A stretch of DNA of 17,093 bases from a virus (Duplodnaviria > Heunggongvirae > Uroviricota > Caudoviricetes), in IMG/VR virus record IMGVR_UViG_2537561716_000030, one strand, 5' to 3'. A program made the position numbers. This document shows, piece by piece, positions 3,001 to 9,000 of the stretch. Positions within the stretch are counted from its first letter, which is position 1, and each line of letters begins with the position of its first letter.

Positions 3001-6000
3001 CCGCTGCCATCCCTTCGGCTGTGTGACCAAGCAGGAAGAAAACGTTGTACCCGTAAGGCAGAGGAATACTCCAGTACTCTCCGGCCTTGCCCCCGAACAC
3101 CGATTTCATAATGACGAGGTTACGCTCTTTCACATGAGACGGCACCTTGTCATACCAGTTAACCCCGTCATCATCCTCCCCCGCAACACTGCGGTTAAGC
3201 GAGCCAAGCAGATAACCCGCTCCCACAGCTGCAAGCGCGATTTTCTGCGGTACATTGAGATTCTTCCAGCGAAGGCGCTCCAGTAACGGCCCGTCGCCAT
3301 TAAGATGTCCGAGCGTTCTCACCAGGTTTGCGGTCCCCTGAATGCTGGCGTTGGCGAACATGTACAGCGAGTTCATCAGCGCTCCCTGCTCACCACGACG
3401 GTTAAAGTTCACCGTCATGTTTTTGGCAAGAGACGCCGCCTGCTGGCGTGACAAACCGGCATCACGGGCGTGTTTATAGGCAGAAAGACGCAGAGCGTTT
3501 TCAACCGCCCCGTTGGCATCCTCGACAAGGTTAAGGAACGAATTCCATGCACCGATACTCTGGCCTTTCCATCCTCCCTTCGCCAGCGATACAAGGCGAT
3601 CCATTTCCTTCTGCTGGCCTTCAAGGTCACCCATGTTAAACCAGCCGGTTTTACCTCCGTCCTCAACAAACTCTTTCCACACCTTCTGCCACTGTGCACC
3701 TTTTCCCGTGAGGGTTTTACCACGCAGACTGGCGTATACGGCTGACATGGCAGAACGGCTGTCTTTCACCACAGCCAGGGCGGATAAGTTATCCAGCCCT
3801 TTCAGTTTACCGTCGCTCCTTCCCTGCTCCGCCTTCAGGTTCATCACCGCCGTCTGCACGTCACGGATGAAGTTACTGACCAGGAATTCCGGGTTATACG
3901 ACGTGTTCACCGTTGCCAGGAAGCGGTTAACTTTCCCCAGCGTACGAACAAAGGCATTGCTGGTTTCCGGTCCCATATTCTTCATCGCACGCATCAGGCG
4001 CGGATCATGGAGTTTGATGTAGTACGTTTTGCCGTTCTTTTTGGTGGTGAAGTACCGGTCTGCCATCATTGCCATCGGTACAGGGCGTTCGACAACTTCG
4101 CGAATGGTTTCACCAGTTTCCTGGTCCTTGCGCTCTGCAATCGTCCGCATGGTATCCGGTCTGTCATCGGTGAATACCTGCCAGTAATCCTTGTCGGGAT
4201 TATCCTGCACCAGTTTCAGGAAGGCGTTACCCACTTCGTTTTTGCGATGGCGGATCAGCGATTCGCTCAGGTCCTGTATCGCCTGAGTGGACGGAGACTG
4301 TGCCCGGGATGCACGCCCCATGGCTTGCCTGCTTTCACGTCCGCCGATGGTGAAGCCCTTACCTGTACGGGGCAGTGACACCACACCGTCAACATCCTGA
4401 CCTTTCAGGGGAACGTAGTAACGGTAGGCGTTCTGCCAGGCATCCACCACACCGTTCTCTTCAAGTCCGGCCTCACGGATAAGCTCACGGCGACGGGCCA
4501 GCATATCGTCAATAATCCCTGCCAGACGGTCATACTGTGCCTGTTTGCCACTGTTACGTACACGCTGCATGATTTCCGCCGCTTCCGCGTTGGTCATCCC
4601 CGAACCGCCGTCCGGCATTTTCGGGTTGATTTTCGCGATATGCGCGTTACGTTCCGGCGCGTGACGGGCGTAGAGGTACTCATCCAGATCGGCCTGCGCA
4701 ATTTTGTAGTCCGCCAGTAATTTAGCCAGTGGCTGAACGTAGCGCTCCTTCATCACGTTCAGGTCGTTTTCCGCCTTCCCGTGGAAGAGTTCTTCCGCCA
4801 TATAAGCGTTGTTACTGTCGTCCACTTTGCCGCCAGTTTTACGGATATTCTCCTGAACAGCTTTCAGCACCTGGAATTTATCCTGCATCTGGCGCACAAA
4901 ACGCGATGCAATTGTCTCTTCCGGTGTCAGACTGCTGGTACGGGAGTAATACGGCCCCTTGCGAATATCTTCAGGATAGAGTATTTTATCCGCAGAGCCG
5001 CGATAAGAATGTTCCCCTTTGGGCAATTGGAGCCCTCTGTGCAGAAGGTTATCGCGGCTTAATTTTTCTCTCCGGTACAACGTTAACCCGGTCATTTCCA
5101 TACTCTTCAGTTTTTTTCCATTTTCTGTACCGTAAACAGAAGCTACCTTGTTGATTTCCAGACGCGACCGGACAGCCTTCATGTGTACCGCTGACACCAC
5201 CGGATCACCATTTTTATCCACGGCATCAAGCAGCATCACAACCGCATTTCTTTCTGTCGCTGAGCGGTAAATTGCATCCGGATCGTGCATCAGTTCCGGT
5301 AGTCTCTCGATAACATCCATCGGCACCACATGTTTCACACCATTGGTGGCCTTCCGCACAGTATCGCGGGAAATAACCAGCGGCAAATCCGGTGCACCAA
5401 GGTGACGCAATACCGGCGGCGTACGCCCGATGTTTACCGTTAAATCTGTGGTGCGCAGAGATTTCATCATTCTGGCAAGGTCATCACGATAACGCTCGCC
5501 CTCACCTTCCGGCACTTTGAACGGATCACGTTTACCACTACGGGAGTACTGAGACGATGCGCCCGCGCCATCCTCACGCGGCGTGTAACCTTCCCGCACA
5601 CGCTGGCCTAACGTACGGATGGTCTCGCGAACAAGTCTGATATCGTTCAGTTCCGTCGGCTTCAGTAACCCCGTACGACGCAGTACCCCTTTGACCAGGG
5701 CAACAACACGCTCCCATGCCGCCACGAATTTATTCGGCTGTTTCTCCGCCATATGTGCCAGAAATTCACCCGCCTGTACTTCCGGTGATTCCTTACCATA
5801 GGAAGCATCAACCTTACGCCAGGCTTCACGGATGGTGACGTTATCACTGTCGCGGGTTTTCAGCACGGTTTTGATAATCGTCTGATATTCCGCTGGTGTG
5901 ACAACATGCTCCATGGCATGGTGAATGATCTCGTGACGCAGCTTCTCGCGAACGGTCCGCCCGTCAGGGATGTTATCCGCCACCAGGACAATTTCTCGTT

Positions 6001-9000
6001 TATCCGGACGATAGAATGCGTGCACCCTGCCGTAACCATCGAACAATTCACCCGCCAGCGCTTCAGCCTCTTTCTGTGACTTCACCACACGGACCTTCAG
6101 GTCACTGTCCTTAATGCCGCTCATCACGCCACGGGCAACCGCTTCAACCTGCGGGACCGGGCTGCCTTTGGCTTCCGCACTACGGTTAACATCCGAAATG
6201 AGATTACCTTCAGGTGTGCGGGTAACGCCCTTACGGGAATAAAACGCAACGCCCTTGTCCGTCTCACGGGTTTTCAGGGTGCGGAACAGGTGATCGAATG
6301 CCTCACGAATACCGCCATCCAGTTCCGCATTCGTCGGATAAGCGTAGGTGTTATCTGTGTTGTGCTCAGGTGCCTTACGGATATTGACCAGATAATCATT
6401 CTCCACGCCAGCTTTACGCGCTTTATCCTGAACATAACGTTCAAAGGCACGTGCCGCCATTTCAACATCCGTTGACCAGTACGGTTTTGAGCGCACCTCA
6501 TCGAGAAGCGCTGAACGACGCGGCATGTCACTGTTTTTAATGGCCTCAATGACACCTTTAAACGCGTCGTAAACCTCCTGACGCACCGGATATTCAGCGT
6601 CAACAAACCGGCCGTCTTTAAATACGCGCTTGACACGCCTGGCTTCCGTCATAAAGTCACCACCTGACGTAATCTTCCCGTCAGTGGAAACATCATAACG
6701 ACCAAAATAATTATCCAGTGAATGGAACCATTCGTGCGCCAGCGCACCCGGTCCGTTACCTTTTGTCAGGTTGATTGCCACCTCACCCGGCTCATAGTGT
6801 GCTGCCGCCTTACCCTTACCACGGGCACCAAATGCCAGGCCAAGACGACCGTTCAGGGAAAGCGCTTTTGTCGGTACATTCAGTACTTCCGCAAGGTCAT
6901 GCAGCGAGTCATAAGCCCGGTTCAAATCAGCCTGACGACGCGGACCTTCCACGTAGTTACCAAACTGCACACCACGAAAACCAAACGCATCGCTGAACTG
7001 CTTCGGTGAGACATCACCCTTGCGGCGTTCTGGCCCGGTACGATCGCGGTTGGTGGCGTTACGCTGCTCCTCACGCGAAATCTCACGCATCTCCTTCACA
7101 TGACGAACAAGCTCATCACGATGTGAATCAATGTACTTACGCGCATCACTGGCTGACTTAAAGCCACCTCTCACCCGCATTTTGTTTTTGCCGTAAGCAA
7201 TAAAAATATCGCCACTGCGGGTATTCCGGTATACGTCAAAGCTGATTTTGTCATCCGGTGACAGTGCTGTTTTTTCATCACCTTTCGCCTGTGATTTTTC
7301 CTCCTGCTCTGCAAACCAGGCTTTTGCCTTTGTCAGTAATTCATCCCTGCTTTCCGAGAAAAAGAGATTGCTCCCCTTATTGTCCTTATTGCGCAGTGAA
7401 TAAAGTTTCCGTGGCGGATCGTAACGTTTCCCTCCTGCCGCCTGATACACACCGGATACCACCCGATAAGCAGAAGCCTTGTCTATCTGCGAGGGTGGCA
7501 GCGTGCGTAACAGTTGCCATGTGTCCGCGTAACGGGCGGGCATTCTGCCTTCCATCCACTCAGCAAGCCGTCCGGCAGTCACTTTTCCTTCCAGCATTCC
7601 CGCCACACTTGTGCGGATACTCTTTACACTCTCCACCCACTTCACTGCATTGAGTTTCGTCTTCGCCGGAATATCGCTACGATACAGCGCTATCATTGCC
7701 AGGGTATCAGCATCGGCACCTTCGTTCGCCAGTTTTGCGTAGTCCGGTTTCGGGAACAGTTTGCTCAGCGGTTGCGTGACATAATCCCTGTCTTCCAGCG
7801 TTTTACCCAGTGTTTCGGCAAGCTGTGCATAACGGTGTTTTGCCGCGCCCTTAATTTCTTCACCAAAGTCTTCAATTTTTTTGCCCCTGACTTCACCTCC
7901 GCGCACGGTAGCTTCCCTGTCAGTAGAGACTGTTGTTTCAGATTCAGGTGCGATTGTCTCAGGCTGCAGGATGTCACGATTTTCTCTGGCCTGCCGACGT
8001 ACTTCTGCCTGCTGTGCGAGCTCAGGCAGTGAGTCCCGTACAGTGCGGGGAAGTGATTCAGGCTGAGGCATACGAACATTACGCGCAATGTCAGGAGCCG
8101 GTAGCCCTTCACGTACCGGTGCTGTCGCGTTCTGCGCATCCGGTGACGGCAGACCCCGACGAACCGTTTCACCCTCGAGTGTTTCCCCCTGGCGACCAGC
8201 GGCGTTTTCCGGTGCCGGAGCACGTCCTTTCTGGAAACTCTGGCCCTTAACCTCACCGGTTATGGTAAAACGACCACCACGTCCGGCCTGATTTTCATCC
8301 GGCGTACGCGCCACTTCTCCCGGTAACGGATATCCCTGTCCGGGATGAATATCGCCGGGGGCGGGCAGACGCGGACGCTCAGTTAACTCCTGAGCTGTCG
8401 GACCGGCATCACCTTCAGCCATCTGTGAACGCACCAGCTCTTCCGCCGTCGGCACGTTGCCACGGGCAAGGCGGGCCTGCACTTCTGTATCATCTCCCGT
8501 AAAACCCCGGAATCGCGGGTCACGCATGAACGCTGGCTGCTCCATCGGATCAGCATCAGTAATACGCTCTCCGTCAGCCAGGGTGTTAATGGTTTCCGTT
8601 GCCACATCTTCAGAGAACGCAGGATTATCCATTTCAACGGCATACTGATTCTCACCTTTCTTCACTACGGACGGTTTCAGGCCGGTGGCGCTGGCATTGC
8701 GAAAAACATCGCTACCCATAGCGCTTTTCTCATCCGTGAAATAACGGTTGTCCGGACGCACCTTTTCAATGCGTTCCGCTGGTCTGGACGCGCCACTCCC
8801 GTTAATTTCAATACGCACTTCATCCGGATCGCGGAACCGCACCGTCGGATAAATACTCCCGTCGCCATCATCTGTATTTTCTGGCTGTGCCTCCGGTCTG
8901 GCCTCCTGCTGAGGGCGAAGCACATCACGGATAGCCTGTAACTGCTGCTCTTCAGTCTCAGTACGCCCTTCCTTCAGGCTGAGTCTGCGGTATTCCTCAA

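Follow-up and report, generated by a model that had tools for sequence, protein, structure and literature searches.

The right end of a short-tailed Shiga toxin (Stx)-converting prophage in the Escherichia coli O157:H7 chromosome raises the question of why one giant phage protein should carry two HExxH-type motifs near its centre. The stretch analysed here (the window; 17,093 bp, virus record IMGVR_UViG_2537561716_000030) contains the gene for this polyvalent/ejection protein on the minus strand at 2204..10579, as are all features of the gene given below; its product of 2,791 residues is the orthologue of gp47 of phage phi24B. Each motif is probably the catalytic centre of its own zincin-like metallopeptidase domain of the gluzincin type, and the two domains differ from each other and lie side by side in the middle of the protein: domain 1, of the CLCA_X type (6260..7042, residues ~1180-1440), and domain 2, from a family without a Pfam or NCBIfam model (5525..6172, residues 1470-1685). 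Residues are numbered from the ATG at 10579, the start used by GenBank and RefSeq, which has a GGAG 7 nt upstream. The open reading frame from the first TTG spans 2204..10606, and the residue numbers of about 1291 and 1558 given earlier for the motifs are counts from that upstream TTG.

Reverse-complement translation of the minus-strand reading frame places HEWFH at window positions 6722-6736 (residues 1282-1286, context GNGPGALAHEWFHSLDNYFG), and places HEIIH (5921-5935) and HAMEH (5906-5920) together at residues 1549-1558 (context KLRHEIIHHAMEH). Both locations, 6722-6736 and 5906-5935, are exactly those of the initial annotation, and the spacing of about 265 residues that it reported is 267 residues from HEWFH to HEIIHH. 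The same annotation warned that so short a motif may arise by chance in a large protein, and HExxH is indeed short and the protein 2,791 residues long. However, the two occurrences seen are far above chance because only 0.034 are expected in the whole protein from its own composition. Hundreds of homologues, distant ones among them, conserve both motifs, and confident zincin folds are predicted; chance strings without a surrounding domain are refuted as an explanation, with next to no probability left to them.

For HEWFH, family membership is indicated by NCBIfam profile NF041907 ('CLCA_X family protein'), which matches residues 1180-1435 over profile positions 3-245 of 250 (E value 1.3e-43). 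The score of 149.3 bits lies below the curated NCBIfam subfamily cut-off of 260, and domain 1 is, as judged from sequence comparison, a CLCA_X homologue outside NCBI's narrow subfamily. A search with residues 1190-1445 returned 373 proteins, practically all of which carry HEWxH where they cover the site, and HEWxH is found in nearly all of 120 homologues. In the set used for conservation (49 sequences, 30-48% identity) the invariant residues include E1263, H1282, E1283, W1284, H1286, E1373, R1377 and F1379, with H1261, D1289 and E1380 kept in at least 90% of the sequences. H1261-Y-E1263 (6791..6799) forms strand 2 of the domain and supplies the clade-specific 'His at end of strand 2', HEWFHSLD (residues 1282-1289; 6713..6736) lies in the active-site helix, and EMAARAFE (residues 1373-1380; 6440..6463) stands at the N-terminus of Pfam LPD1, with E1373 as the predicted third metal ligand.

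An AlphaFold2 model of residues 1040-1445 (predicted local distance difference test, pLDDT, 89; predicted template modelling score, pTM, 0.78) contains a helix at 1213-1233, strands at 1247-1250, 1261-1263 and 1268-1271, the active-site helix at 1280-1294, an insert and then a helix at 1371-1389 bearing E1373 and E1380, the E1373 helix lying 87 residues downstream. In Pfam this single peptidase unit is divided between two entries of unknown function, LPD5 (6986-7435, residues 1049-1198) and LPD1 (6266-6505, residues 1359-1438), and the HExxH helix is left in the unmodelled gap. LPD5 comprises a beta-rich N-terminal module and the start of the peptidase unit; domain 1 spans the gap and includes LPD1. 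Since LPD1 starts with the invariant Glu helix (YWSxxxEMxARAFE), it is, on the predicted fold, the C-terminal helical half of the domain 1 peptidase and not an independent domain. Solo phage proteins of ~330 residues carry LPD5-HEWxH-LPD1 as one unit. One solo homologue, P0056 (333 residues, positions 8001-9002 of metagenome contig L003), is encoded among small phage genes of unknown function, in a gene run divergent from the phage terminase, portal and protease genes; this module is non-structural and probably early.

The second motif was followed beyond its close relatives, the only proteins returned by a word-indexed homologue search with domain 2, by an exhaustive HMMER search of 1.84 billion cluster representatives, which gave 371 matches at E<=1e-3 with E values down to 1e-75. 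Most of these representatives have the domain inside proteins of 1,500-6,000 residues, and a few are solo proteins of about 200-270 residues. Among 146 aligned segments, E1550, H1553 and E1605 are present in every one, H1549 in 144 and E1612 in 92%; in a 32-sequence alignment the H, E, H and E columns are the only invariant ones, and HEx(2-3)H is kept in 166 of 169 domain copies. The active-site helix contains HEIIHH (residues 1549-1554; 5918..5935), in which H1554 aligns with a His/Tyr position, and a later helix contains GEFLAHMAE (residues 1604-1612; 5744..5770), whose E1605 is the predicted third ligand; the E1605 helix lies 52 residues downstream. In 138 of the 146 members the family motif is HExxxH followed by [HY]-G-L, and it is shortened by one residue, to HE[ILV]IHH, in the window protein and in the five cluster representatives nearest to it. 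Domain 2 is thus a homologue of the HExxxH family with derived canonical spacing: a one-residue deletion in the Stx-phage clade has restored the i/i+4 arrangement, and H1554 could still serve as a His at i+5. No NCBIfam model matches domain 2, and a Pfam scan of 32 members found no family above noise, the only match being Peptidase_M76 at E 0.06-0.2 in 6 of the 32.

In the AlphaFold2 model of domain 2, residues 1-145 have pLDDT >88, and the order of elements is helix, strand, helix, two strands, the active-site helix (1540-1559), two helices and a helix (1599-1612) with E1605. Both predicted folds match the zincin core, which consists of an N-terminal helix, a three-stranded sheet, the HExxH helix and a second helix with Glu. 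The metallopeptidase-like domain or domains suggested by the initial annotation are thus supported as two, by motif residues conserved among homologues of HEWFH and HEIIHH alike and by a zincin-like fold predicted around each motif. Its description of HAMEH as HxxEH-like does not hold, because E1557 and H1558, within the remaining AMEH (residues 1555-1558; 5906..5917), are not conserved; an inverzincin (HxxEH, M16-type) is rejected, as both positions vary (Q, N, K, S, A) even among close relatives. Foldseek comparison of domain 2 with viral models gave fragments of phage proteins labelled 'large polyvalent', 'structural', 'internal virion' and virion RNA polymerase (vRNAP), along with SprT-like and IrrE-like proteins; ArdC and vRNAP are among the weaker fold matches. 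Domain 1 is followed by domain 2 in 28 of 147 representatives (median gap 21 residues), and 25 representatives have at least two copies of domain 2. Profile-profile comparison of the two domains puts strands 2 and 3 and the HExxH helix in register, with a match that is not significant (E 0.026, probability 1.9%); they are therefore not recent duplicates.

Zincin-like metallopeptidases in phage polyvalent proteins are already well described, and domain 1 of the same protein family was catalogued in 2013. CLCA_X was defined in Lenart 2013 (PMC3650047) as a zincin-like family of phages and plasmids whose site is HExxH..D, and its Table S2 lists residues 1195-1467 of a 2,806-residue Stx2-phage protein, the region of domain 1. 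Domain 1 resembles CLCA_X in its match to the whole NF041907 profile, its HExxH..D signature and its distribution among phages and plasmids. It differs in the proposed metal site: Lenart 2013 suggests that the Asp also coordinates the metal, but the conservation found here favours E1373 on the later helix. The spacing of this Asp is HExxHxxxD in Lenart 2013, 'three residues downstream' in Iyer 2017 (PMC5512222) and HExxHxxD here (D1289). In Iyer 2017, LPD domains define the 'polyvalent proteins', the zincin-like metallopeptidase is their commonest domain and about 8% of the metallopeptidase-bearing members have more than one. The phage-type clade distinguished there has a conserved His that closes strand 2 and an Asp located three residues beyond HExxH, and domain 1 fits it exactly (H1261 in strand 1261-1263; D1289). 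A second variant has HExxxH, a motif shared by the domain 2 family, but the Stx-phage copy itself departs from it and reads HExxH(H). With the polyvalent protein class as a whole, the giant protein shares LPD5, LPD1, MuF_C, LPD38, two metallopeptidases, encoding by a phage late gene and presence in the virion (phi24B).

More distant systems are related at the level of the fold. The M34/ATLF-like peptidases (anthrax lethal factor, LF, and the Pro-Pro endopeptidases, PPEP) and MtfA show identities of only 6-16% and no sequence-level match; they differ in the spacing of the Glu (here +87 and +52) and in their inserts, and the two domains are not members of these groups. The C-terminal metallopeptidase of N4 vRNAP, P1 DdrB and plasmid ArdC are likewise zincin-like domains in large proteins delivered with invading DNA, and N4 vRNAP enters the virion unprocessed, which also seems true of gp47. 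Their partner domains differ, however, with no RNA polymerase, ParB or ArdC-N here, and relatedness is at the fold level only.

Several observations weigh against the assignment of two metallopeptidases. Profile searches, named in the initial annotation as a check, succeeded in part: they gave the NCBIfam CLCA_X profile at domain 1, and searches by sequence alone placed no Pfam peptidase family, such as MPTase-PolyVal, over either motif above the gathering threshold. Both HExxH motifs fall outside every Pfam envelope (LPD5, LPD1, MuF_C, LPD38), and a Pfam scan of the two motif segments alone gave only chance-level UBD, DEK_C and Peptidase_M76 (E 0.13-0.2). Sequence and profile searches of the PDB with the region and with both alignments found nothing meaningful and no PDB relative. 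Among the closest structural matches to domain 2 are LF-N and Certhrax-N, both catalytically dead. The geometry of the predicted His/His/Glu Zn2+ site is deduced from the order of secondary-structure elements and from conservation, and no biochemical data on metal binding or proteolysis were found for any member of either family.

The state of the protein in the virion is documented for phi24B. The phi24B preprint reports gp47 as abundant in purified virions (10,962 peptide-spectrum matches, PSMs), invisible in the cryo-electron microscopy map and a proposed ejection protein; its peptides extend from reported residues 36-58 to 2795-2806 and include both motif peptides, GNGPGALAHEWFHSLDNYFGR and HEIIHHAMEHVVTPAEYQTIIK. 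The PSMs of gp47 peak in the top gel band and decrease over four or more bands lying above the 80-kDa portal, which suggests that gp47 is packaged mostly as a very large, largely uncleaved species, like N4 vRNAP; any processing is therefore more likely after ejection. For HEIIHHAMEHVVTPAEYQTIIK (window 5870-5935; 34 PSMs), a shift of +15.99 is placed on H1549, H1553, H1554 and Met 8 and not on H1558, a pattern compatible with metal-catalysed oxidation at a metal site, in which the positions are those of search-engine localisation.

By gluzincin homology, each domain would bind Zn2+ through the two motif His residues and the distal Glu (E1373 or E1605), and the motif Glu would activate water as the general base for peptide-bond cleavage. 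The giant protein would be packaged in the capsid and presumably ejected with the DNA, and the enzymes would act after ejection rather than in the head. They would then cut the giant protein at its inter-domain linkers and release modules such as MuF_C and the C-terminal part with LPD38. Such self-processing is the role tentatively favoured here, and corresponds to the autoprocessing of polyvalent proteins hypothesised in Iyer 2017 (PMC5512222). Two findings speak against it: tryptic peptides across the putative junctions (GVAFYSR, EDGAGASSQYSR and ILNEFSR) are intact in virions and no cleavage product has been mapped; and solo domain 1 proteins occur in phage non-structural gene clusters without a polyprotein.

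The junctions in question are marked by a short motif. YSR occurs four times in the giant protein against 0.39 expected, and three of the copies lie just after the ends of domains of three unrelated types. The copy at residues 1447-1449 (6233..6241) is 9 residues past the end of LPD1 and is conserved after domain 1 in homologues; that at residues 1678-1680 (5540..5548) follows the domain 2 core, in a tail modelled with low confidence, its aromatic column being kept in 81% of relatives; and that at residues 1878-1880 (4940..4948) is 41 residues past MuF_C. Further copies are YSR at residue 379 and FSR at residue 95. The pattern was recognised post hoc. Across the homologues P0131-P0278, [FY]S[RKQ] comes after domain 1 in 19 of 28 cases, where about 1.5 would be expected; the figures are 46 of 104 for domain 2, with 8 expected, and 7 of 13 for MuF_C, with 1.1 expected. 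The motif is 1.9-fold enriched over shuffles, compared with 0.9-1.3-fold for control patterns, and its context is polar and linker-like. Cleavage before the aromatic residue in virions is rejected, since the spanning tryptic peptides are present; there are therefore no cuts inside the motif at the virion stage. A tryptic digest cannot reveal cleavage after the motif Arg, and cuts there or after ejection remain compatible with the data. The [FY]S[RK] motif could be a processing or recognition site. That it is the code by which built-in zincins dismantle the ejected giant into separate effectors is a bolder and, at present, unlikely proposition.

A close rival to self-processing, and itself quite possible, is that the peptidases are active and cleave host proteins in trans, for example those of defence or restriction, as injected effectors. 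It is modelled on proposals for ArdC-like and polymorphic-toxin metallopeptidases and is listed as an option in Iyer 2017 (PMC5512222). The solo LPD5-HEWxH-LPD1 proteins are common, and one is found among non-structural phage genes away from any polyprotein; gp47 looks largely unprocessed in virions, and two of the structural neighbours, LF and PPEP, act in trans as endopeptidases with specific substrates. No target is known, however, and domain 2 is found almost only inside giant proteins, often duplicated. The conserved motif beside the domain ends is also explained more easily by processing than by cleavage in trans. Other podoviruses have ejection proteins that carry wall-degrading domains, and a peptidase that degrades peptidoglycan so that the ejection conduit can cross the cell wall would be a comparable role. 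The phi24B preprint proposes peptidoglycan degradation by gp47 and ties it to a 'MuF-C metallopeptidase domain'. MuF_C (5069..5338, residues 1748-1837), however, is a PBECR (RNase-like) domain according to Iyer 2017 (PMC5512222) and is rejected as the peptidase, the real HExxH domains lying upstream at residues 1180-1440 and 1470-1685. Neither of these has M23, M15 or NlpC/P60 Pfam matches, and the fold neighbours are endopeptidases of proteins and peptides rather than wall peptidases, which makes a role in the cell wall very improbable.

A wholly different possibility is that at least one of the domains no longer catalyses anything and is a relic with a purely structural or packaging role. 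Parallels exist in the region of N4 vRNAP that contains its metallopeptidase, which is needed for encapsidation, and in LF-N, which is a dead zincin copy. But dead copies lose the motif, whereas here the H, E, H and distal Glu show little or no variation among sequences of 23-78% identity, with the domain 2 motif lost from only three of the copies counted above, and inert relics are accordingly an improbable, if slightly better, candidate than a wall peptidase. Self-processing at the linkers remains the tentative preference among the roles for two active domains.

Window positions 1-1982 belong to the E. coli chromosome, and O157:H7 strains TW14359, SS17, SS52 and others have an identical sequence there. 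This segment carries mlaA on the minus strand (1-756) and yfdC on the plus strand (1050-1982), which leaves the giant gene as the final prophage gene ahead of the junction with bacterial DNA (1983-2203). No tRNA gene was found at the prophage end within the window. The phage part of the window has 100% identity with several Stx2 phages, among them vB_EcoP_phi345, PA28 and Stx2a_F723, and its central 2 kb matches 186 phage records. Upstream on the coding strand lie virion, tail and moron genes (tail-fibre tip, Lom and several without a family), and the giant gene is the last in the late/tail region of the prophage. Directly upstream of it is a gene for 421 residues (10648-11913, minus strand) with no Pfam family. 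The phi24B orthologue of its product, gp48 ('Transcription factor?'), is found in virions with 1,634 PSMs and a peak at the expected size, and this gp48-type protein may be another packaged or ejected protein.

Within the giant protein itself, the C-terminal part contains Pfam LPD38 (2543..3160, residues 2474-2679), a phage-specific polyvalent-protein domain, and the PHROGs matches are to families of unknown function and to a 'DarB-like antirestriction' family overlapping the LPD38 part. No clear transmembrane segments were found in the C-terminal part, where the maximum Kyte-Doolittle mean over 19 residues is 1.38. The N-terminal third includes a long stretch rich in Glu, Arg, Pro and Ala (E 11%, R 9%, P 8%) at residues ~440-1000 (window ~7580-9260), in which no domain was detectable; the first part of the LPD5-region profile matches a second time, weakly, at residues 901-924.

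The general picture of such systems is unchanged, the zincin being the commonest domain of polyvalent proteins. What is new is the placement in the Stx-phage protein of a second, uncurated zincin domain with derived HExxH spacing inside an HExxxH family, together with the reading of LPD1 as half a peptidase, the corrected assignment of MuF-C and the junction motif. The domain 2 family has hundreds of cluster representatives, yet no curated model. No gene of the most widespread Stx2-converting phages is larger than the one for this giant protein, which is nevertheless labelled 'LPD38 domain-containing protein' in RefSeq (WP_000331680.1) and 'hypothetical protein' in other records, and the only structural study, that of phi24B, puts metallopeptidase activity in the wrong domain, MuF-C, with a peptidoglycan role. 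The predicted active sites, residues 1282-1286 with 1373 and residues 1549-1553 with 1605, are precise targets for E-to-A mutation. If the [FY]S[RK] motif does prove to be the code for dismantling the ejected protein, this would be polyprotein-style processing in a tailed phage, and the Stx-phage peptidases would control early infection and host range in the phages through which Shiga toxin spreads.

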